From Escherichia phage vB_EcoM_F1: a DNA stretch of 64,000 bases. This document shows positions 41,753-64,000 of the stretch, in pieces (position 1 is the stretch's first letter; every line of letters starts with the position of its first letter). Made by a program: the position numbers and the translations under genes. A model generated the notes under the pieces. That model was not told the DNA's origin, searched no databases, and saw only the letters and a list, made by a program, of their open reading frames with translations. The stretch lies in the sequence record NC_054912.1; one strand, written 5' to 3'.

Positions 41753-42223
41753 TTAATCATGTTTCCACACCCCATCGGTATTTGACCAAAGTCGCTGATT
41801 ATCTGATCCTCGCCACAGCTTTTTAGTCGGAAGATTTTTCTCATACTTCCCATCAATAATAACATCAACATATTTAAGCATTTCTAGTTGTTTAATATCT
41901 TCAAACTTATATCCTGTCCACAACCAAATGCTTTTATTGGGATAAAGATTTTTTACTGTTTGAACGATGCAATGAATCACGTCTCTGTTATCAGGATAAA
42001 GAGGGTCACCTCCGGTTATAGTTAATCCTTCTATATAATCATTATTCAAACATTCAATTAATTGTTCTAGTGTTTCACCAGTGAATGGAATACCATTTCT
42101 AGCATTCCATGTTGATTTATTATAACACCCTTCGCATTTATGCAAACAACCTGTAACGAAAAGAACGGTCCTGCATCCAGGGCCATTCACAAAATCGCAA
42201 GGATAAAATCTATCATAATTCAT
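41753..42223 (-). CDS. nrdG: anaerobic ribonucleotide reductase activating protein (radical SAM)
   Basis: 156 aa; CxxxCxxC radical-SAM motif GCLHKCEGC. Confidence 0.85.
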   Translation of the reverse strand: MNYDRFYPCDFVNGPGCRTVLFVTGCLHKCEGCYNKSTWNARNGIPFTGETLEQLIECLNNDYIEGLTITGGDPLYPDNRDVIHCIVQTVKNLYPNKSIWLWTGYKFEDIKQLEMLKYVDVIIDGKYEKNLPTKKLWRGSDNQRLWSNTDGVWKHD

Positions 42224-43499
42224 TGGTGTTTAACCCTATGCATGATTTCTTTATTTTTACCGAGATTAAATCCGCGTTCGTTCGGATTTCCCAAATAACC
42301 ACATGTTCTTCTTATGGTATTCATCTTTTTAGGATCAGTTTCTCCACAAATAGAACAAACAAATCCGTTTTCAGTAGGAGTCATTTCATGGGTACTTCCA
42401 CATGTAAAACATTTATCTACTGGCATATTAACACCAAAATAATCTAAATGTTGTGCAGCATAATCCCACACGGCCTCAAGACCCTTTAAGTTATTTTTCA
42501 TATCAGGAAGTTCAACATAAGAAATGTGACCACCTGTCGCAATGAAATGATATGGCGCTTCACGAGAAATCTTTTCAAACGGAGTAATATTTTCTTCTAC
42601 TGAAACATGGAAACTGTTAGTGTACCAACCTTTATCAGTAACATCCTTTACACTTCCATATTTTTCTGTATCGAGTTTACAGAAGCGATAACAAAGGTTT
42701 TCAGCAGGAGTAGAATATAAACTAAAAGCAAAACCGGTTCTTTCAGTCCACTGTTTAAGATGAGCATTCATTTTAGTTAAAATTTCTCGTCCAATATCAC
42801 GACCGACAAGAATATTCAATTCGTGAATACCAATGTATCCTAGGGACACTGAACTTCTACCGTTTTTAAATAACTCAATTATGTCGTCATCAGGTTTAAG
42901 ACGAACCCCGAATGCACCTTCTTGGTAAAGAATAGGAGCAACAGTAGCTTTAACTCCTTTTAAGGAACTAATTCTACACATCAAGGCTTCAAAACATAAA
43001 TCCATTCGCTCATTGAATAATTCAGTAAATTTCTGTTCATTGAGCTGTGTTCCAATATAAGAATCTAACGCGATACGAGGAAGATTCAGTGTTACAACAC
43101 CAAGATTATTACGTCCATCAAGAATTTCATTACCAGTCGAATCTTTCCATACGCTCAAGAAACTACGGCAACCCATTGGAGAAACAGGAATAGATGAACC
43201 AGTGATAGCTTTATTGTTCTTAGCTGAAATAATATCAGGATACATTCTTTTGCTTGCACACTCTAGAGCAAGCTGCTTAATATCATAGTTCGGATCGTCT
43301 TTATAAAGATTAACACCTTCTTCAACAAACATAACAAGCTTAGGGAAAATAGGAGTTATCCCATCACGACCAAGACCTTTAATACGATTTTTCAGAATTG
43401 CTTTCTGAATCATTCGTTCAGTCCAGTCAGTTCCCGTACCAAATGTAATTGTTACAAAAGGCGTTTGCCCATTAGAGCTGAAAAGTGTATTTACTTCAT
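42220..43499 (-). CDS. nrdD: anaerobic ribonucleotide reductase NrdD, exon 2
   Basis: C-terminal glycyl-radical motif RRTCGYLG and Zn-ribbon CFTCG..CSICG; exon start inferred at 43499 (after intron terminal G). Confidence 0.75.
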
Positions 43500-43727
43500 C
43501 ATTATATTCAGCATGAGTCGCAAATTCATGCCCGTTTATATGAAACAACAAAATTTGGATAGTCCATAGATATGCAACGTTCTTTTATAGTGCTAGGATG
43601 AAAATTTAGCGCTTTAGCTGCTTCTATATAAGACGTATACTTAATACCGTCAACAACCACATATTCAGGAACTTTATGAATAGTAGTCTTAATACTCAAA
43701 ACAAGAGGATGAGTTTCGACTTCACTT

Positions 43728-44297
43728 TCAGTGCAATTTAAATATTCCGCTGCTTTTTTTAAAACTTCTAAAAGTTTTATTTTTAAGCTTTATCGATACT
43801 TGTTTTTTACTTTTTCGACTATTGATATTATTTTGCACATGTTCCTTAGATCTTCCGTTTTTAGCATAATATTCAGCTATAGAAGATTTTATATTGTTTT
43901 TATGAGATTCGGATAACACTTTACCCTTATGAGCATCTCTTAATTTTTGAATATGTTCTTCAGTATCCGGATGCTTATAAAACTTTTTACCGCCTATGGA
44001 TTTATTTAAACATTTTTTGCTATAAAAATGTTTACGTATGACCTCTTCTTCATGTTTTAATGCATCTTTATAACTATCAAATGTTTTTAAAATTATCCAT
44101 TTAGTAGGTGTATCAGTTTTTAAGCGTTCATTTATATACTTAGATGACGTTGTGTAAGTTTTCCAGTTTGTGGGCTTGTTTTTAATTGTTCTAAATTTTT
44201 TATAACCGATATAAATGTCGCCGTTAGAAAACTTAACTAAGTATGTAAATGCGTCTTTATCTTTTATTTTAGTACAACGTCTTTTTATCCATTTCAT
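43728..44297 (-). CDS. intron-encoded GIY-YIG homing endonuclease (I-TevII-like), apparently truncated by a frameshift
   Basis: 189-aa ORF with GDIYIGY motif; a further open stretch ending at 43526 in another frame encodes a NUMOD-like DNA-binding segment (YTSYIEAAKALNFHPSTIKERC); A7 run at 43754-43760. Confidence 0.65.
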   Translation of the reverse strand: MKWIKRRCTKIKDKDAFTYLVKFSNGDIYIGYKKFRTIKNKPTNWKTYTTSSKYINERLKTDTPTKWIILKTFDSYKDALKHEEEVIRKHFYSKKCLNKSIGGKKFYKHPDTEEHIQKLRDAHKGKVLSESHKNNIKSSIAEYYAKNGRSKEHVQNNINSRKSKKQVSIKLKNKTFRSFKKSSGIFKLH

Positions 44298-44326
44298 TGT
44301 TTCACCTCGTATTCATAAGATAATCT

Positions 44327-44334
44327 TATTTATA
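44327..44334 (-). promoter_or_regulatory. T4 late promoter (TATAAATA) inside the intron upstream of the endonuclease ORF
   Basis: exact TATAAATA on minus strand about 30 nt upstream of the ATG at 44297. Confidence 0.5.
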
Positions 44335-44545
44335 CAAGATGACTGCTGCATGTCGCCATGCAGATTAGACTATATCTTCATCTTTCGATGCCGGCCGTTT
44401 CGAATAGCATTAGCTTCTATTCTACACCGCTACATTCATCACGGTTAGTCGTTAGGCATTTAGTTCAAAAGAACATTTAGCACGGGATTGTCTACTAGAG
44501 AGGTTCCCCGTTTAGACCGGTTTTACATGAGCCTGAATTAAATTA

Positions 44546-45083
44546 ACTCATACGCCTGGAACGCGTCATAGACATCTTTTTCTGTTTTAGATTGAGCATA
44601 ATTCAATGCATCAGCGATTTGCCATTTTTCTGCATCCTCAATATGTTTTGCATAGGTGCGTTTAACATAAGGAGAAAGTACTTTATCTACATTCGCAAAA
44701 GTCGTTCCGCCATATTGATGGGAAGCAACCTGTGCAGTAATTTGTGCCATAATTGCAGTAGCAACACCGATTGATTTAGGAGTTTCAATCTGTGCATTAC
44801 CAAGCTTAAATCCATTCTCAAGCATTCCTTTTAAATCTACTAAACAGCAATTAGTAAATGGAAGAGCAGGGGAATAATCAATATCGTGGAAATGAATAAT
44901 TCCGCTTTCATGCGCTTTCATAATAAAAGACGGGACCATATTTTTGGCAATGTGTTTAGACACAATACCAGCCATAAGGTCCCGTTGAGTTGGAAAAACA
45001 CGAGAATCTTTATTAGCATTCTCGTTTAAAAGGTCTTTATTAGTTTTATGAATCAATCCTTCAATTTCTTTTTCAATTGTCAT
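44546..45083 (-). CDS. nrdD: anaerobic ribonucleotide reductase NrdD, exon 1
   Basis: N-terminal 179 codons; track ORF continues 2 codons into the intron before a stop at 44538. Confidence 0.75.
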
Positions 45084-49616: not shown

Positions 49617-49646
49617 ATTATACCACATCCTTGTGGCAAAGTAAAC
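49617..49646 (-). promoter_or_regulatory. T4-type early promoter
   Basis: minus strand GTTTACtttgccacaaggatgTGGTATAAT. Confidence 0.5.
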
Positions 49647-50671
49647 TAGTTCAGTGCATTTAGTGCATTGTTCAGTTTAGAACGTTGCTTTGTCAGATTT
49701 TGAACCCTTGACTGAGCTTGTTCTAACGCCTTTTCAGCTTCTAGCACTTCATTGGTCGCTTTAACGAGTTCATCATCTACTGCCTTAAGAGACTTCTCAA
49801 TCGCGTCAGCGTGCCATTTTTCTACAGGTTTAAAATTTGAATTTTCAGTAGGAAGAAAACTCACTTTATTAAGTTTACATGCATCTATATTGCTTGAGCT
49901 ATACATCCAAAATTTAGGATCGTTTGATAAGTAATTGGATAAATTTAAATTTAAGTTATCTTGTACTTCCTGCTTTTTCTCTTGCGTGACTTCGTCCTTT
50001 CTCAAAAAATCGTATTTAAATGAAACGATCATATCAAGTTCATACGTTGTTGTGTCTAACTTAAATCGTTCAAAACGAGGTAAAATCTTAGATTGAACAG
50101 CAGCAACAACATCCATATACTTAAATGCTTCTGTCAACTGTGATTTAAGGCATTCACAAATTGAAAGAGAATTTTTTGTATTAGGTTTAAAGCTAATTCG
50201 CGCAGTTCTATTATTTTCTTTTAATGGTCTTACTTCCATTTGAAGAGTATAACCATCAAATTTCAGATTCTTTAAGTTAATATCAGAACCTTTTAATCGA
50301 CTAGCAGTAGACAAAATTTGCTTTAATTGTCTACGGAACAGAGCAATAAATCTCCATTCAATACGATAATGATTTGGATTGAAAAATCCAGATGATAAAT
50401 CGACCTTACTCTGACCAACGCCTTGAACAAATAGAGGATTTTTATAATCAATAGTTTTACAGAAATCGGTGAGCTGTTCACGAGCAGTCATTTGTGTAAT
50501 ATATCCAGCTTTATCAAAATGACGTAACCATTCACTGCTATTCATATACTTAAAGTGAATATCACGATTAACTTTATCAGGGTCTAAATTATTTTGGCAC
50601 AAAAATGTCATAACATCACGAGTATAGCTGGCATTACGAACCATATCTTCAATTTGAGAACGAGTTTTCAT
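49646..50671 (-). CDS. coiled-coil family protein, paralog 3 of 4 (341 aa)
   Basis: motif YRIEWRFIALFRRQLKQILSTASRL aligns with paralog 2 RRWVSEFRSFTKQILKSASKL. Confidence 0.6.
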   Translation of the reverse strand: MKTRSQIEDMVRNASYTRDVMTFLCQNNLDPDKVNRDIHFKYMNSSEWLRHFDKAGYITQMTAREQLTDFCKTIDYKNPLFVQGVGQSKVDLSSGFFNPNHYRIEWRFIALFRRQLKQILSTASRLKGSDINLKNLKFDGYTLQMEVRPLKENNRTARISFKPNTKNSLSICECLKSQLTEAFKYMDVVAAVQSKILPRFERFKLDTTTYELDMIVSFKYDFLRKDEVTQEKKQEVQDNLNLNLSNYLSNDPKFWMYSSSNIDACKLNKVSFLPTENSNFKPVEKWHADAIEKSLKAVDDELVKATNEVLEAEKALEQAQSRVQNLTKQRSKLNNALNALN

Positions 50672-50679
50672 AGTGTTCC

Positions 50680-51588
50680 TTAAGATTTAAGTAAATCAAC
50701 AATTTTAATTAATTTTTCACGCTCAGATTTAGCTTTACTACTCAATCCAGATAGTCTGAAAATTTCATCGTCATACTGTTGAATAGAAATATTCAGCTCT
50801 TCAATTTGCTTATTAAAATAATCAATTTGTTCAGAATGTTTTTCGTTACTACGAACTGGTACAGGTTTTGTAGGTAATTTAGATGAACTGGATTCATCCG
50901 GGCGATAAATTAAAATACAACTTGAACCAATAGGGCATTTTGCACCAGATGAATATTCTAATGTTCCGGCTTCTTTTAAAACTTCAAAAGCTAAACAGAG
51001 ATGATGCCCCATATTAACATAATCAGTAGAGCGAGCTCTGATATAATAATCATCGCCGCGAATACTAAATTTAAAGCATTTAAGGTCTTCTGTATTATTG
51101 GTCTTAAAAATCATTTGTTTATCTAGACCTTTAGCTAATCGAGCGCCTAATGCTAATAATCGTCGTTGATTTTCCCACAAATCCGCAATCATTTGATCAA
51201 ATGATAATTTCGGCATTAGTCGACCATAAAGGTCGTATCCTTTATTATAATTGCGAAGGATTTCACTCGCATTAATACGAGACAATGCTCCAATTTTATT
51301 AAGGGCTTTCATGATGCGATTAGATAAACCCATTCCAGACCCATTTGTTCGTTGTAAATGTTTATCTAATCCAAACCCAATATCAACTTTAAATTTATCT
51401 AAAATTTCAGCATGAACATCTCTGTCAATAACATTCAAATCCAAAGTTGGGTTAAATCTATGAAAAAATTTATCTGGCTCTCCACGACGAAGTACAGTCC
51501 ATTCATTCAATTTTTTATTAACTAAAGATTTAATTACTGCATTGACATTATTAATTACGACTGACATATTTTCCTCACTCAATTTCAA
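50680..51588 (-). CDS. coiled-coil family protein, paralog 4 of 4 (302 aa)
   Basis: more divergent; retains W.NQRRLLALGARLAKGL core and C-terminal coiled coil. Confidence 0.55.
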   Translation of the reverse strand: MKLSEENMSVVINNVNAVIKSLVNKKLNEWTVLRRGEPDKFFHRFNPTLDLNVIDRDVHAEILDKFKVDIGFGLDKHLQRTNGSGMGLSNRIMKALNKIGALSRINASEILRNYNKGYDLYGRLMPKLSFDQMIADLWENQRRLLALGARLAKGLDKQMIFKTNNTEDLKCFKFSIRGDDYYIRARSTDYVNMGHHLCLAFEVLKEAGTLEYSSGAKCPIGSSCILIYRPDESSSSKLPTKPVPVRSNEKHSEQIDYFNKQIEELNISIQQYDDEIFRLSGLSSKAKSEREKLIKIVDLLKS

Positions 51589-51982
51589 TTTTACTAAATA
51601 CGCAGAATATGATGGAAAAGACTATATAAGCACCACACACAGATTGAACTAATACCATTCCAAAGAACCAAACAATATTATCAAACAATGTCTGTTTTAC
51701 GTCGAAAGGACGTAAACTTACAGTAATATTATCGCCTTTTTCTATTGATGAATACATCTCTGGGGAAATATATTCGCTAAATCTATAACCGTCATTGAGT
51801 TCATATACAGCAATAAACGATAAACTAGATCCCTTTCCTTGAGTTCCTGTAAGGGTATTAACTACAGTAACATCATAATCTTTATAATGCATATAATCAT
51901 TAATTGCGTAATAACCATATGCAATTACTATACATAAACAACATATCAATAAATTCAATCTTTTAATTATCAACTGTTTCAT
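51575..51982 (-). CDS. membrane protein (135 aa, N- and C-terminal hydrophobic helices)
   Basis: LLICCLCIVIAYGYYAI and IVWFFGMVLVQSVCGAYIVFSIIFCVF segments. Confidence 0.5.
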   Translation of the reverse strand: MKQLIIKRLNLLICCLCIVIAYGYYAINDYMHYKDYDVTVVNTLTGTQGKGSSLSFIAVYELNDGYRFSEYISPEMYSSIEKGDNITVSLRPFDVKQTLFDNIVWFFGMVLVQSVCGAYIVFSIIFCVFSKIEIE

Positions 51983-52037
51983 AATAATCTCAGTTAAAAG
52001 GGCTTAGAACCATTATACCATCCTTGGTATAAAGCGG

Positions 52038-52565
52038 TTATGCGAGTACCGTCTTTAACCGTTCTTCAAACTTCCGAAGAGTATTCTGGCGTTCAGCTCT
52101 TTGCTTTTTGTAAGTTTCAATACGCTCTGAAATGAGAGTGTATCGTTCATTTACTGATTCTTTCATAAAATCAGGAATTTCACGAGAAGATTTAATCTCG
52201 TCAAATTTATCAATAACAGCTTGCTCTTCAGCAATTAAGTTATCATACATCAAAATATCTTTCTTGATGAACTCAATATCTTCTTGAGTTACACGAGATA
52301 ATTTAGATGCTTTATCCTTTTTGTACTGTTCATTAGTATCACGAGACCAGTGTAATGTACGATTTTTATTCGTATTTTTGTAAATTTCTACAATACCGAT
52401 CTCATCAATAATAACGATCCAATTCCAACGAGATTTGTAAATTTGCCCTCCATCAACCGTGATTTCACCTCCGATTGAGATGTCATTAAAGAACTTGCTT
52501 TGTGCTTCAGATTTAAATTTACCATCATTGTAGTTTACCAAGTTGAAAATATCTTTAGCATTCAT
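52038..52565 (-). CDS. hypothetical protein (175 aa)
   Basis: ATG at 52565 with GGAGGA RBS downstream of an early promoter; track ORF extends through the promoter. Confidence 0.5.
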   Translation of the reverse strand: MNAKDIFNLVNYNDGKFKSEAQSKFFNDISIGGEITVDGGQIYKSRWNWIVIIDEIGIVEIYKNTNKNRTLHWSRDTNEQYKKDKASKLSRVTQEDIEFIKKDILMYDNLIAEEQAVIDKFDEIKSSREIPDFMKESVNERYTLISERIETYKKQRAERQNTLRKFEERLKTVLA

Positions 52566-52591
52566 TTTCTGTTCCTCCGTAGTTGATAGTT

Positions 52592-52623
52592 GTATAGTAC
52601 CACAGAGGAACGGTCTTGTAAAC
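52592..52623 (-). promoter_or_regulatory. T4-type early promoter (TGGTACTATAC variant)
   Basis: minus strand GTTTACaagaccgttcctctgTGGTACTATACaactatcaactac. Confidence 0.45.
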
Positions 52624-52625
52624 AA

Positions 52626-52940
52626 CTAAAAGAAACTTCTTTCACAATTTTTTCCACTGAACCACGCGCTCACTGCTTTCTTAGTCTCAGGAGCAGTGTT
52701 ATCCATAAACCATTCAAAGGCAGCCTTTTTATGATTCTGGAGAGCTTCTCGGGCTTTAATCTGCTCACGGTCTATTAACACTAACATATGAGCCTTTCTT
52801 GTCACCAAGGGCTTCTTATGATTCTTGGAGTATTCCCAGTCATTTGTCCAACGCATTGTCGTTGCGAACTGAAATACTGCTTCTTTAATTTTAGTTTCGT
52901 AAATTTCACGAGCCTTTGAGTATAACATCATTACCTCCAT
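52626..52940 (-). CDS. hypothetical protein (104 aa)
   Basis: track ORF. Confidence 0.45.
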   Translation of the reverse strand: MEVMMLYSKAREIYETKIKEAVFQFATTMRWTNDWEYSKNHKKPLVTRKAHMLVLIDREQIKAREALQNHKKAAFEWFMDNTAPETKKAVSAWFSGKNCERSFF

Positions 52941-53029
52941 TTACCAGTTTAATTCTAGTCATCTTTTTGATGGCAGTCCATATAATCTATTTCTGAACTG
53001 CCTTTTTGTCATAGAAGGCCTCTTATGAA

Positions 53030-53998
53030 TTATTTCAGAAGAGTAACCTCAGCAATTTCTTCCCAACCATTTTTGTCGGTCATAATAAAGTCAGCAAGAT
53101 AAAGAGCAGTACGCAGTGAAACATTGCGTAAACGATTAACATTGACTTTCATCCATGATAATGCTTTATAAGTTTCTTCATCAGAAAGACCGCGCTTTTG
53201 CATCATGTCAGTTGAAAGAATAACATCTTCAACCCTGACCATAATTTCTTCATTAGTGTGAACACCCAAATCCAAATAAACCGAGCGGGACACTAATGCT
53301 TGTAAATGTGGAGCAAGTTTAGTACCACGGTCTAATTCGCGGTCAATGTCAACGTTTGTGATAAAAACAATCGTTCCTTTAAATTCAAACTCACGCTCAA
53401 TGCCTTTTTCTTCTAAGTAAGAAGATGCAGTGCTCCAGCAGACTTTACGGGTCTCTCCAGTGTCCAGAGCAGCTTTCAGAAGATTAAGAATGTCCATATC
53501 AGAGAAAACATCCACATCATCAATCAAAAGGACAGAATTCTCTTCACGATTATTCCAAAGCTGTTCATAAAGACCGATACCAGAGATTTTACCATTAATG
53601 CTTTTATACTCAATGTATCCAATGTCATTTGCTTTATTTAAAGCTTTATCTAAAGAATACGTTTTACCAATACCCGCCGCACCAGAGATAATTAATGAAC
53701 GAATGTTTCCGTTAATAATACCATTCGTCATCATTCCCATAACATTAAATCTTTTATTAATGCGGGTTTTCATATCTTCATATGATTCTTTAACTTCTTC
53801 AACTTTTACACCATCATATGAAATGTCTGATTTGTAAACCCAAACACCGCGACGCTTACCGTCAATTTCAACAAAAACTTTACCATCTCCTTGTGCATCT
53901 ACCGGAGCATTATCTGGGAACCATTCACCTAAGAGCTCAAAAGTTCCAGAGATTTCTTTACCGAAGTAGATACCCTTATTGATAGTTACAGTTTTCAT
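53030..53998 (-). CDS. P-loop AAA+-type ATPase (322 aa)
   Basis: Walker A GAAGIGKT, Walker B LLIDDVD, sensor-like FITN; ATG at 53998 with GGAGAA RBS (track start is GTG). Confidence 0.6.
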   Translation of the reverse strand: MKTVTINKGIYFGKEISGTFELLGEWFPDNAPVDAQGDGKVFVEIDGKRRGVWVYKSDISYDGVKVEEVKESYEDMKTRINKRFNVMGMMTNGIINGNIRSLIISGAAGIGKTYSLDKALNKANDIGYIEYKSINGKISGIGLYEQLWNNREENSVLLIDDVDVFSDMDILNLLKAALDTGETRKVCWSTASSYLEEKGIEREFEFKGTIVFITNVDIDRELDRGTKLAPHLQALVSRSVYLDLGVHTNEEIMVRVEDVILSTDMMQKRGLSDEETYKALSWMKVNVNRLRNVSLRTALYLADFIMTDKNGWEEIAEVTLLK

Positions 53999-54033
53999 TT
54001 TATTCTCCAATCTCACATTTGTTTTGATAGGGT

Positions 54034-54064
54034 AATAGTATCACACTACTACCCTTCTGTAAAC
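54034..54064 (-). promoter_or_regulatory. T4-type early promoter
   Basis: minus strand GTTTACagaagggtagtagtgTGATACTATTACC. Confidence 0.4.
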
Positions 54065-54067
54065 AAT

Positions 54068-54331
54068 TTATTTTAACGTTCGCCAAATTTTTACTGCTTC
54101 ACGGCGAGATACTTCTACAGCTCCAAGTTCTACAGCTTTTTGGCGTCGCCGAGCGTGTAAGTCATAATGTTTAATGCGTTTATCTTGAAACCAAGAACGT
54201 TTCATTCCTATTGCTTCTGCCATTTCGTGAAGCTCTTCAATATCTCCATCAGTGAACATATGACAATTTTTAGTTGGATGACCGCGAAGTTTCCATCCAT
54301 GATTCATTAAAACATCTACGTAAACTGTCAT
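54068..54331 (-). CDS. hypothetical protein (87 aa)
   Basis: track ORF. Confidence 0.45.
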   Translation of the reverse strand: MTVYVDVLMNHGWKLRGHPTKNCHMFTDGDIEELHEMAEAIGMKRSWFQDKRIKHYDLHARRRQKAVELGAVEVSRREAVKIWRTLK

Positions 54332-54477
54332 TGATTCTTCTCCAAATAAGTTTCGATAATTTTCTGGGCGAGATAAACCGCGTTATCTTCAGTTGCGTCT
54401 TCTAAGAAACTTTCAAAACACTCTGAAATTTCTTCTGTATCAATCAACTTTTTTACTTCAATTGGTGTAATTTTCAT
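54328..54477 (-). CDS. small acidic hypothetical protein (49 aa)
   Basis: manually translated MKITPIEVKKLIDTEEISECFESFLEDATEDNAVYLAQKIIETYLEKNQ; ATGA overlap with downstream gene. Confidence 0.35.
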   Translation of the reverse strand: MKITPIEVKKLIDTEEISECFESFLEDATEDNAVYLAQKIIETYLEKNQ

Positions 54478-54511
54478 TTTGTTTTCCGTTTAAGTGTTTG
54501 TTTTGATAGTT

Positions 54512-54543
54512 GTATAGTACCATAAAGCTTTATGCTTGTAAAC
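54512..54543 (-). promoter_or_regulatory. T4-type early promoter (TGGTACTATAC variant)
   Basis: minus strand GTTTACaagcataaagctttaTGGTACTATACaactatcaaaac. Confidence 0.45.
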
Positions 54544-54573
54544 AACTTTGTGAAAAATTTTTGAAATAAAAAA

Positions 54574-54591
54574 GGGAGCCCGAAGGCTCCC
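54574..54591 (-). terminator. strong stem-loop gggagcc-cgaa-ggctccc with U-run
   Basis: 7-bp GC stem, UUCG loop, minus RNA followed by uuuuuuauuuc. Confidence 0.6.
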
Positions 54592-54593
54592 TA

Positions 54594-55607
54594 TCATTTA
54601 TAATAACTTCGGTGGTTTTCAAGATAGACCTTCTCAAGGAAGTCATCCCAGAAACCCATGTCTACTTTTTGCTGCATACCGTTCTTAGAAGCTTCAGTAG
54701 ATGCTGCTTCTACTTGATCGACCACATCTTCCAAAAACTCTTGAACTGTTTTAAATGGATGCTTACCCAACTTCACGTCGAGAATAAATGGAGCATCTTG
54801 GAGTGGATAAACCAAGTCACCAGTTTTGTAAATTTCCAATAGTTGGAGTCCACCACGGCAAGCATGACTCAGAGCTTTCCAGTCAATACCTTCATTGGCT
54901 TCGGCCTTACGAGCGCGTTCACCATATTCAGCATCTAATTTGTTCAGTGACTGCTTAAGCTCAATAAGAGAAAGAGTTGTCTGATATTTACGACCCAACA
55001 CTGTGTAAAACGTCTGTGGGCCTGTTTTCTCATGATTATGGAACACCCATTCACAGAATTCGTTTTCTGGAAGACGATGCTTAATATCTTCAACTTTAGT
55101 ACGACGCTGCTTAATGGAACCGTCTTCTTGGTAATCAACCCATTGCTCAGGGATTTGATTAACTACTTTCAATACATCGCGTAATGCAGCCAAACGAGAA
55201 CCCTTAACGCCGTATTTAGAAGCTTGCTTACGGACATATCCTAAATATGATTTCATGTTAGTCGTATAAAAACGAGAACGGTTGTCTTGAATAAACTTCC
55301 ATACATCAGGCAAATCAGATTTAACCACTAGTTCAGGCGGAGTGTGAAGCATATCCAATGCTACAGTTTCACCATCTGCCGCTAATTTAAAGAAATACTT
55401 AAGACTGTATAGTTCATGGTCAATATCATCTTTAGTGTTTTTAGATGATGTGTTGTTAGTGTTTTTGCTCATATGCTCTTTAACATTTCCGATAAGAATA
55501 TCGCGAGCAGGAGGAACAAAAATTTCTTTAAAATCTACATCAGATTCTGGAGTAGAAGTTCCATAAAGATGACTACCAAAATAGCTTTTCATTACTGTTT
55601 TCATCAT
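54594..55607 (-). CDS. Pol-beta-superfamily nucleotidyltransferase-fold protein (337 aa)
   Basis: GS(x10)DVD motif FGSHLYGTSTPESDVDF plus downstream acidic residue (ALDML), followed by helical C-terminal domain. Confidence 0.55.
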   Translation of the reverse strand: MMKTVMKSYFGSHLYGTSTPESDVDFKEIFVPPARDILIGNVKEHMSKNTNNTSSKNTKDDIDHELYSLKYFFKLAADGETVALDMLHTPPELVVKSDLPDVWKFIQDNRSRFYTTNMKSYLGYVRKQASKYGVKGSRLAALRDVLKVVNQIPEQWVDYQEDGSIKQRRTKVEDIKHRLPENEFCEWVFHNHEKTGPQTFYTVLGRKYQTTLSLIELKQSLNKLDAEYGERARKAEANEGIDWKALSHACRGGLQLLEIYKTGDLVYPLQDAPFILDVKLGKHPFKTVQEFLEDVVDQVEAASTEASKNGMQQKVDMGFWDDFLEKVYLENHRSYYK

Positions 55608-62215: not shown

Positions 62216-62677
62216 TCATTGAGTTTTAATTACTGCTTTAGAAGCCTTTCCTGGTAAACGACGACTGTTAATAATTGCCATCCTACATTGAAGTGACGGG
62301 TCTTTGAACTTCGCATTAGGTTTACAAACTGTAAATCCAAGCCAAAGATTTCCATCTGTGATTTCTAAACGTCCAGGACGATATTCAACCCCATCAATAA
62401 AATCCTCGTCAATGTCAGGACGCGGAGGCATACTCAGGAATTCATTAACTTCTAAAACATGGTCTTTTATTTTATGGAATAATTCAAAAACGTATGTCTC
62501 ATCAATCTCCCGTTGAATTGCGCGATCAAGAAGATGTTGAGAATATTTTAGATGAAACGATGAGACCCCTGCTGCTTTTGATGCCTCACGAATCTCATTG
62601 TTAATTTGACGAAACTCCGACTCAAAGTGACGACGAAGCTTATTTCGACGGATAAAAACTTCTGTATTGATAGTCAT
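62216..62677 (-). CDS. regB: RegB sequence-specific endoribonuclease
   Basis: 153 aa MTINTEVFIRRNKLRRHFESEF; recognised as T4 RegB; early promoter upstream. Confidence 0.75.
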   Translation of the reverse strand: MTINTEVFIRRNKLRRHFESEFRQINNEIREASKAAGVSSFHLKYSQHLLDRAIQREIDETYVFELFHKIKDHVLEVNEFLSMPPRPDIDEDFIDGVEYRPGRLEITDGNLWLGFTVCKPNAKFKDPSLQCRMAIINSRRLPGKASKAVIKTQ

Positions 62678-62704
62678 GTTATTCTCCTCTTAACTGATAG
62701 AAAA

Positions 62705-62734
62705 ATTATACCACAGTCAAGAGGAAAAGTAAAC
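62705..62734 (-). promoter_or_regulatory. T4-type early promoter upstream of regB
   Basis: minus strand GTTTACttttcctcttgactgTGGTATAAT. Confidence 0.5.
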
Positions 62735-62736
62735 AG

Positions 62737-63015
62737 TTATTCTTTAAATCTAATCAATTTATTCATAGACTTTGAAACTTCTGCACGAACCTCATGTAGA
62801 TTTTTGAGCTGTTCAAGACGCTGCTCATAGTAAGCAATTTCATCTTCTTCGAGACAGTCCTGTGAATCTTCTTTAAGATAACGTGCATAGTCCTGAAAAG
62901 CGTTACGAACTACTTCCTGGAAATCATCAAGACTTTGAATTTTCTTAGGAGCAGCAGATACACGACGAGGGGCAGTATAATACTCATAACCAAACCCTGC
63001 GCTTAATTGAGCCAT
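62737..63015 (-). CDS. hypothetical protein (92 aa)
   Basis: ATG at 63015 with GAGGAA RBS; track ORF extends to 63057. Confidence 0.45.
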
Positions 63016-63281
63016 TAGTATTTTTCCTCTGGTTGGAACACAGCACGGCAAGCCCACATACTGGCTTCTTTGAGTTTCGTTTTAGCAATAGTTAACTGAT
63101 CGAGGCTTTCGGCGTAATTCTTCGCGAGTTCATCATCTTCACAGCTATCAAATGCTTCCCAAAATTCATCGTATAAAGCATCAAAGATAAGTCCTAAACG
63201 AACTTCAGCGTCTTTGATAGCATTCACTTTACCGATTTTCTCTTCAGTATGTGGTTTATAACCTTTAATATCTTCAATCAT
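63015..63281 (-). CDS. hypothetical protein (88 aa)
   Basis: ATG at 63281 with GAGGAA RBS; track ORF extends to 63317. Confidence 0.4.
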
Positions 63282-63495
63282 ATTTGACTTCCTCACCAGT
63301 ACATAAATCATATTCAACTAAACGAATAGGTTCATGAATGCCATATCCTTGAACAGAAATTTCTGTAGTAGGATAAATTCCATTAATATCACCCATGTTC
63401 CATGCTTCGTTAAATTGCTGTTCGCCTGAATTACTAAACCATTCGGCGAAAGCATTTAACACATCTTCAGAACCTTCAATAATTATCTTTGCCAT
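63274..63495 (-). CDS. hypothetical protein (73 aa)
   Basis: track ORF. Confidence 0.45.
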   Translation of the reverse strand: MAKIIIEGSEDVLNAFAEWFSNSGEQQFNEAWNMGDINGIYPTTEISVQGYGIHEPIRLVEYDLCTGEEVKYD

Positions 63496-63857
63496 TACAA
63501 ACTCTCGGTAAAGGTACGAGCGATAACGTCGCGCTGCTGTTCCGGAGTCAGAGAGTTAAAGCGAACTGCATAACCGGATACACGGATGGTCAGCTGTGGA
63601 TATTTTTCCGGATGCTTAACTGCATCTTCCAGAGTTTCACGACGCAGAACGTTAACGTTCAGGTGTTGACCACCTTCAATTTTAACTGTAGGCTGTTGCT
63701 CAATTTCAATTTCACGGGCATGCAAACCATAGAAAATTTCTGGGTCTACAAAAGAGTCCTCTTTAAAGGTTTTAGAGACAATAATTCGCGCTTGAATACC
63801 ATCTTCAAAATAAATAGTACCTTTATGTGTGCCTTCAAGAATTTGATATGCTTTCAT
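63495..63857 (-). CDS. autonomous glycyl-radical cofactor (GrcA/YfiD-like)
   Basis: 120 aa ending with glycyl-radical signature [17 protein letters not shown]. Confidence 0.75.
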
Positions 63858-64000
63858 ATAAACCTCAATTAGAAAATAAATTTATCCAAGATTGTTCTTT
63901 AATTAAAAATGGCTCAGAATCATATGCCATTAAACTCTGTGTGATTAGTCCTTTAAAAGGCCCATCAATAAATTCCATGGTAAAATATGGAATTTTATTC

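Follow-up and report, generated by a model that had tools for sequence, protein, structure and literature searches.

The vs.6 orthologue of a T4-type Escherichia phage: a GrcA-like glycyl-radical cofactor gene with a host-identical tract in its radical domain

The T4 protein Y06I, the product of vs.6, has been a textbook glycyl-radical "spare part" since 2001. Only two spare parts for PFL have been validated, namely YfiD and T4 Y06I (PMC8683613). As described in the passages of that paper that cite Wagner et al. 2001 (BBRC 285:456), YfiD (GrcA) and Y06I are small proteins that restore PFL after its cleavage by O2; in vitro, PFL-AE puts the radical on Y06I, which forms a complex with O2-cleaved PFL (PMC8683613). 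Residues 61–127 of GrcA have the fold of PFL residues 693–759, and residues 1–60, although disordered, are needed both for binding to cleaved PFL and for efficient installation of the radical (PMC8683613). The radical on G102 of GrcA acts by intermolecular hydrogen abstraction from C419 of PflB (PMC12338860). On the phage side, vs.6 is among the few ORFs conserved in all six of the T4-like genomes compared by Nolan et al. (2006, PMC1524935), who guessed at a role in nucleotide metabolism, since NrdD has the same Pfam domain. Here we describe the vs.6 gene of a T4-type Escherichia phage, its probable partner enzyme, and a mosaic structure at the DNA level that ties its radical domain to the host gene grcA.

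The vs.6 orthologue and its radical domain

We analyzed 64,000 nucleotides of Escherichia phage vB_EcoM_F1 (NC_054912.1), referred to as the window. Positions 62500–64000 of the window match the same coordinates of Escherichia phage vB_EcoM_FN (MZ170041.1, Tequatrovirus) with 100% identity, and "FN" below denotes the window sequence; about 500 T4-type genomes are at least 95% identical to this segment. It contains an ORF with an ATG start on the minus strand at 63495..63857, which encodes a small protein of 120 aa that stands alone instead of being one domain within a large enzyme; it has its own Shine-Dalgarno sequence (GAGG, 63863..63866, minus strand, 5 nt upstream of the ATG) and its own stop codon. 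The genes vs.8-vs.7-vs.6-vs.5-vs.4-vs.3-regB lie on the early-gene strand with the same order and sizes in the FN record and in T4. The stop codon of vs.6 shares bases with the ATG of the next gene (TAATG), and the gap that separates it from the upstream gene, vs.7, is only 7 nt, which makes vs.6 part of a co-directional early/middle gene array. A promoter and terminator scan around the gene returned as many promoter-like sites as expected from shuffled sequence, with none upstream of vs.6 on its own strand, and three terminator-like hits, all on the plus strand, opposite to the gene.

The window ORF is the orthologue of T4 vs.6 (Y06I). Both proteins have 120 residues, are encoded between vs.7 and vs.5, and share 98% amino-acid identity, with Q54P and R73H in the T4 protein (NP_049730). 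The two genes also have the same mosaic structure, described below, and differ in the codons at the 3' end. The T4 reference annotates NP_049730 as "autonomous glycyl radical cofactor GrcA", and as a gene the locus is thus already known, being both annotated and biochemically characterized in T4. The preliminary description of this DNA did not recognize the ORF as a known, annotated T4 gene; its coordinates, its length of 120 aa and the RVSGYAVRF motif are all as that description had given them from the ORF list and the sequence.

Profile and structure searches likewise bear out the earlier reading of the protein as a GrcA-like spare glycyl-radical domain. Pfam Gly_radical (PF01228) matches the ORF with 67 bits (E 2.5e-18; cut-off 22.2), and phrog_1209 matches it over its full length, residues 1–120 on profile positions 1–121 (E 5.7e-63). 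For the GrcA/YfiD family we used the identifiers TIGR04365 and IPR011140. TIGR04365 (spare_glycyl / GrcA) is the top NCBIfam model with 154.9 bits, a score that lies under the equivalog cut-off of 170 bits because the N-terminal half of the phage protein is divergent, with 29% identity to that of GrcA. The structure of E. coli GrcA (6OWR) is matched with E 9e-42, the final 63 residues being 100% identical, and the C-terminal segment 697–759 of PflB with E 5e-26. The glycyl-radical signature RVSGYAVRF (aa 92–100; 63558..63584, minus strand) is identical in the phage protein and PflB. An alignment with E. coli GrcA, proposed earlier as a check on the conserved glycine, places Gly95 (codon GGT, 63573–63575, minus strand) on G102 of GrcA and G734 of PflB; the residue whose absence would have refuted the earlier reading is therefore present. 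The radical domain of vs.6 is of the PFL type, not the NrdD type.

Comparison with described relatives shows where the phage protein stands apart. It shares with E. coli GrcA (YfiD, 6OWR) its stand-alone form and the identical C-terminal residues, radical glycine included, while its N-terminal half, a distant homologue of that of GrcA along its full length, is seven residues shorter; the phage gene also lies in an early/middle array rather than next to ung. The C-terminal glycyl-radical domain of PflB (693–759) is the fold element that such proteins replace; it belongs, however, to an enzyme of 759 residues, whereas the phage protein is a detachable radical module joined to a recognition head. 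The short forms GrcA2 and GrcA3 (NF008341, NF038360) match in the radical domain (E 4e-27 to 6e-31) but are only about 78–80 aa long and have almost no N-terminal extension, unlike the phage protein with its 59-residue head.

The probable partner enzyme of the phage protein

We consider it highly probable that the window ORF encodes a phage autonomous glycyl-radical cofactor of the GrcA/YfiD type, which serves as a replacement radical domain for host PFL and is armed by the host activase PflA. The biochemistry behind this assignment comes from the literature on the 98%-identical T4 protein; orthology and the PFL-type radical domain come from the present analysis, and the benefit during infection is our inference. 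The preliminary description had offered two roles, one of them service to a host glycyl-radical enzyme. This option agrees with what the passages of PMC8683613 on the T4 orthologue report, namely that Y06I is activated by host PFL-AE and rescues O2-cleaved PFL.

We propose that, at traces of O2 in a facultatively anaerobic host, the Gly734 radical of PflB would react, the chain would be cut at Gly734, and the enzyme would become inactive. The phage protein would then bind the cleaved PflB, and its C-terminal domain (residues ~60–120, identical to E. coli GrcA 67–127 and apparently a copy of PflB 697–759) would take the place of the lost radical domain. The host radical-SAM activase PflA would place the radical on Gly95, the Gly95 radical would take a hydrogen from Cys419 of PflB, and pyruvate would again be converted into acetyl-CoA plus formate. 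By this route the phage copy may keep up the fermentative supply of acetyl-CoA and ATP when infection takes place under micro-oxic or anaerobic conditions. T4 brings the gene expression of its host to a stop while it still depends on host fermentation under anaerobic or micro-oxic conditions. Host GrcA would not be replenished because of this shut-off, and a spare part encoded by the phage would be useful because T4 halts host expression yet needs host fermentation for its energy under these conditions. No in vivo infection phenotype of vs.6 was found in the literature searched, and to our knowledge the in vivo value of the gene in a gut-like micro-oxic infection has never been measured.

Whether PflB is the only client is a separate matter. 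It seems unlikely that vs.6 serves other PFL-family host enzymes besides or instead of PflB, such as TdcE, the 2-ketobutyrate/pyruvate formate-lyase with a PFL-like C-terminus. The DNA of the tail is about 76–79% identical to tdcE in E. coli, and the GrcA family has been speculated to repair other glycyl-radical enzymes (PMC8683613); however, experimental evidence exists for PFL only (PMC8683613), and the tail is far nearer to grcA and pflB than to YbiW, PflD or CutC, which it matches with E values of 1e-12 and weaker.

The other role offered earlier was that of a replacement radical domain for the anaerobic ribonucleotide reductase of the phage, said to be encoded alongside. Both nrdD and nrdG are indeed present in the window. 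The nrdG gene lies at 41753–42223 (minus strand; Pfam Fer4_12/Radical_SAM), and nrdD comprises two ORF pieces at 42220–43551 and 44538–45083 (minus strand; Pfam NRDD and Gly_radical), split by a GIY-YIG endonuclease ORF at 43728–44297 (minus strand; Pfam SegE_GIY-YIG), an arrangement that resembles T4 nrdD with its I-TevII intron as annotated in T4. The two genes are not, however, alongside vs.6: a distance of 18–22 kb separates them from it, both here and in every other T4-type genome examined. Under the reading in question, NrdG would activate the small protein, which would replace the O2-cleaved C-terminus of NrdD. Its appeal lies in the shared window, in the Gly_radical domain that NrdD also has, in the earlier proposal of a role in nucleotide metabolism (PMC1524935), and in two jumbo phages with a GrcA-like gene between nrdD and nrdG: Salmonella phage PHA46, with a contiguous nrdD-grcA-nrdG, and Yersinia phage fHe-Yen9-04, with nrdD-g131-grcA-g133-MTase-nrdG. 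Against this, BLASTP of vs.6 with the NrdD of the window gave no significant similarity (E=1.6, the weak alignment lying off the radical site), and the vs.6 tail, 100% identical to GrcA and close to PflB 697–759, is shaped for the PFL barrel; the jumbo-phage copies, too, have PFL-type tails. On the missing similarity and the distance we reject a spare-part role for NrdD, which we regard as very improbable.

We take the grouping in the jumbo phages for an "anaerobic module" and not for evidence of NrdD repair. A GrcA-like gene inside the nrdD-nrdG cluster of two such phages makes a regulatory or activase link possible in some phages; a bolder and weaker suggestion is that their GrcA-like protein might be armed by phage NrdG rather than by host PflA.

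A host-identical tract within an older phage gene

An alignment of FN and T4 vs.6 with E. coli grcA divides the gene sharply at nt 179. Upstream of this point, no DNA similarity to host grcA is found; from it to the stop codon the gene is grcA-like, with 97.3% identity in FN and 98.4% in T4, synonymous sites included. The head (gene nt 1–178, codons 1–59 and one base of codon 60; 63680..63857, minus strand), delimited by GC content and an ungapped identity profile, has a GC content of 0.34, the phage average. The tail (gene nt 179–363; 63495..63679, minus strand), which encodes the structured glycyl-radical domain, has a GC content of 0.48 and lies inside the 185-nt stretch where GC content peaks in the 64 kb. 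When the window was compared by megablast, in three overlapping pieces, with E. coli genomes, the tail was its only host-identical DNA. Each of the 5,426 complete E. coli genomes shows the grcA match, which is restricted to nt 179–363.

Within the tail, a core tract (gene nt 181–350; 63508..63677, minus strand) is identical to E. coli grcA at 169 of 170 positions in FN and in T4 and at 170/170 in phage OES_C-2; the sole difference of FN is a G>A at nt 261. Identity of the core tract to grcA of other genera falls to 0.918 in Citrobacter, 0.876 in K. pneumoniae and 0.824 in Salmonella. A wider comparison with grcA from 80 other species gave the same picture for the complete FN and T4 tails, which are 97–98% identical to E. 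coli, 96–97% to another Escherichia and at most 91% to any other genus (82–83% to Salmonella). Since the tails are nearest to Escherichia and no other genus exceeds 91%, these identities identify Escherichia as the donor of the tract.

Other sources of the match were considered and rejected. Neither pflB (77%) nor tdcE (about 76%) can have donated the tail DNA, given the 97–100% identity to grcA. Transfer in the opposite direction, from phage to host, is rejected because divergence among the tails of host grcA genes parallels that among their heads and follows taxonomy, and because the tract has a host-like GC content (0.49, against 0.34 for the phage) and substitutions that are mostly GC>AT. 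Summed over six E. coli phages, the tract shows nine differences, of which eight are GC>AT, none AT>GC and one of another kind; such a bias is expected when host DNA undergoes amelioration in an AT-rich phage. Nor can the DNA identity be put down to protein constraint or codon bias: Slopekvirus and Pseudotevenvirus encode an identical 60-residue protein tail with 24–27 DNA differences in 170 nt, and at that rate the probability of at most one difference is about 6e-12. The match specific to the host genus argues against constraint as well.

The head has a history of its own. Alone, it gives no match to TIGR04365 or any other NCBIfam model; a profile built from nine phage heads, however, when aligned by hhalign with one built from the N-terminal halves of twelve bacterial GrcA proteins, matches GrcA residues 2–66 over all 59 columns with 95.8% probability (E 6.7e-9, 29% identity). 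This supports the view of the head as a very distant GrcA homologue and of vs.6 as an old phage gene. A fusion in which an unrelated phage domain was joined to a piece of captured host DNA is disfavored, both by the remote homology of the head to GrcA and by the phage-type codons that remain at the end of the gene. The head corresponds to the disordered region of GrcA to which binding of cleaved PFL and activation are ascribed (PMC8683613), and because the counterpart half of E. coli GrcA mediates these functions, its divergence in the phage protein might alter partner recognition or regulation.

At the other end, the phage genes keep phage-type synonymous codons in their final two to four positions, the form common to Slopekvirus, Pseudotevenvirus and Jiaodavirus being ACA GAG AGT CTA. 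E. coli grcA ends with ACT GAA AGC CTG; the corresponding codons are ACT GAA AGT TTG in T4, ACC GAG AGT TTG (partly phage-type) in FN, ACT GAG AGC CTG in OES_C-2 and Shfl2, and ACT GAG AGT CTA in Mosigvirus. The point at which host sequence switches back to phage sequence thus varies among phages. An internal host patch with variable endpoints inside an older phage homologue is the signature of gene conversion, and we propose that the radical-domain part of an old phage grcA homologue was overwritten by homologous recombination with the chromosomal grcA of the host. The tract covers the structured domain almost exactly (GrcA residues 67–127 of 61–127), and the head evolves freely.

Recurrence of the tract and probable host tracking

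The host grcA tails were used as queries against 50,697 phage records. The E. coli tail matched 637 records at 95% identity or more, nearly all of them Escherichia or Shigella phages, and eight more at 90–95%; its top match stood at 99.5% and the next large group, of 298 records, at 80–90%. With the K. pneumoniae tail, 77 records were recovered at 95% or above, mostly Klebsiella T4-like phages, and 61 at 90–95%. No Salmonella-type tract was found at or above 95% in the same set, in which the Salmonella tail matched three records at 90–95%. In an IMG/VR survey both tract types came up again and no other tracked host genus was added, within an 82-species grcA panel that leaves out Aeromonas and Vibrio. 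T5-like, jumbo and other T4-like lineages have phage-type tails, to which none of the 82 host grcA genes is more than 86% identical.

The Klebsiella examples KPV15 and Nispero are Jiaodaviruses. Their core tracts are 0.976 identical to K. pneumoniae grcA and that of KP179 is 0.918 identical, as against 0.86–0.88 to E. coli; in all three phages the residues TLLDAVEH, of Klebsiella type, stand in place of the TLEDAVKH of E. coli. Because the E. coli and K. pneumoniae tails are themselves only about 88% identical, at least two independent transfers are required. Heads and tracts also give incongruent relationships among the phages. KP179 and Nispero have heads that are 99% identical and tracts that are 93% identical. 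Between Tequatrovirus and Mosigvirus, the E. coli T-even phages whose tracts are 97.6–100% identical to E. coli grcA, the heads are 89% identical and the tracts 97–99%, so the tracts are younger than the phage lineages that carry them, which points to repeated or ongoing exchange.

Repeated gene conversion with host grcA during infection, which may still be going on, is thus likely to keep the radical-domain part of vs.6 matched to its present host. The matching itself has two explanations: it may reflect selection for compatibility with host PFL and PflA, or it may simply follow from a 170-bp stretch of homology in a phage that recombines very readily. Slopekviruses that infect Klebsiella keep an E. 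coli-type protein tail with diverged DNA, which argues against a strict functional need for matching at the DNA or residue level.

On a further reading, the host-identical tail would be a by-product, neutral to selection, that arose when the phage recombined with host DNA already degraded, and the gene would have no selected function in the phage. The tract, as the only host-identical DNA of the window, does have the look of a recombination patch. Homologues of vs.6, however, were found in 1,590 phage records, and more than 1,500 phage genomes, from several families, carry the ORF intact; lineages that were not converted retain the identical protein tail at about 15% DNA divergence, the gene is conserved in 6/6 T4-like genomes (PMC1524935), and biochemical activity is reported in the parts of PMC8683613 that deal with the T4 protein. 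We give neutrality almost no credence. Purifying selection on vs.6, listed here in support of a role in PFL repair, is read from the 1,590 records, the six T4-like genomes and the tails that are identical despite divergence of their DNA.

Exchange of segments with host alleles also occurs in cyanophage psbA and in other auxiliary metabolic genes. Like vs.6, such a gene provides a phage version of a host metabolic protein that suffers damage under infection conditions, and it has intragenic patches of host-phage recombination. The patch in vs.6 differs in covering only a single structural domain, that of a repair cofactor, in reaching up to 100% host identity over 170 nt, and in occurring in hmC-containing T-even phages, which degrade host DNA. 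The full-text literature searched contains no description of the vs.6 mosaic or of its DNA-level identity to grcA; key older papers (Wagner 2001, the Miller 2003 T4 genome review, Bowman 2019) lie outside that search. The host-tracking mosaic is the sole observation here that goes beyond what was known of the gene; it is evolutionary in nature and modestly surprising.

For the biology of these phages, vs.6 is a good example of an auxiliary metabolic gene that repairs a host energy enzyme after the shut-off of host expression. The mosaic indicates that T-even phages, though they destroy host DNA, are able to copy a specific host segment repeatedly into a homologous gene. It also splits a recognition head that is free to evolve from a catalytic tail that is locked to the host, a division relevant to efforts to engineer spare parts for other O2-sensitive glycyl-radical enzymes. 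With its host-specific synonymous markers, the 170-nt tract offers a natural and easily scored system for measuring host-to-phage recombination. If repeated gene conversion does keep it matched to the host, the ~170-nt tract would record in molecular form the genus of the recent host and would be a rare documented case of DNA flow from host to T-even phage, one that possibly keeps the spare part compatible with the PFL and PflA of the host.

A host-derived patch in vs.6

The 3' half of vs.6 (63495-63679, minus strand) consists of E. coli grcA DNA, the core of which (63508-63677) matches E. coli grcA at 169 of 170 positions. This half gave the sole megablast-level E. coli match in the whole 64-kb window against 5,426 E. 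coli genomes and sits inside the window's highest-GC 185-nt stretch; DNA similarity to the host was absent from the 5' half. In the record of Escherichia phage vB_EcoM_FN (MZ170041.1), vs.6 (63495-63857) is annotated as 'pyruvate formate-lyase', and 'thioredoxin' is given to seven unrelated ORFs (record 49646-55604) that correspond positionally to the T4 nrdC.4-nrdC.11 region. Both labels look like propagated mis-annotations.

Klebsiella-type tracts and variant copies

A second tract type, occupying the same gene position as the E. coli-type patch, was recovered from Klebsiella phages. Among these Jiaodaviruses, the tracts of KPV15 (L094) and Nispero (L095) are 0.976 identical to K. pneumoniae grcA (L093:400-783) and that of KP179 (L084) reaches 0.918 identity to the same gene; all three encode the Klebsiella-type residues TLLDAVEH. 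This Klebsiella-type tract with its residues, together with the comparison of KP179 with Nispero, in which the heads are 99% identical and the tracts 93%, indicates that host-to-phage conversions happened independently. Several PLSDB entries labelled as plasmids (CP125156.1, 5.37 Mb, H87; H90-H92) are in fact complete chromosomes or parts of one; here they served as a source of K. pneumoniae grcA, but they are a trap for inferences drawn from plasmids.

Individual copies also vary. In the KPV15 record (L094:525-886), a frameshift within the head breaks the gene up into two CDSs, reflecting either a pseudogene or a sequencing error, and OES_C-2 (L096:529-885), which has the most host-like tract (170/170), carries a 6-nt in-frame deletion immediately 5' of the head/tract junction. 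Some T4-like phages, represented by IMG/VR contigs of 102-173 kb (L108-L112), retain an 'unconverted' tail with a GC content of ~0.42, at most 83.5% identity to any host grcA and the residues L[TS]KETLE[DE]AVQH; this is probably a picture of the tail before conversion.

The nrdD/nrdG neighborhoods

In two jumbo phages, the GrcA-like gene lies within an nrdD...nrdG cluster (Salmonella phage PHA46, L087:1177-3824; Yersinia phage fHe-Yen9-04, L100:1279-5543), directly flanked by nrdD and nrdG in PHA46, and its tail remains PFL-type. Such clustering may constitute an anaerobic expression module; alternatively, NrdG might activate the GrcA-like protein. In the window, nrdD comprises two ORF pieces (42220-45083, minus strand) interrupted by a GIY-YIG endonuclease ORF (43728-44297). 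This interruption corresponds to the T4 nrdD group I intron containing I-TevII, although the window ORF, at 189 aa, is shorter than I-TevII (~258 aa).

Tract type and named host

Phages named after Salmonella, Yersinia or Hafnia carry either Klebsiella-type tracts, as in Salmonella phage PSE-D1 (H165, 97.1%), or E. coli-type tracts; those concerned are PSE-D1, Yersinia phages PST and fPS-2 (H29, H12) and a Hafnia phage (H182). The tract may therefore be a better guide to a phage's natural host than its isolation host is.
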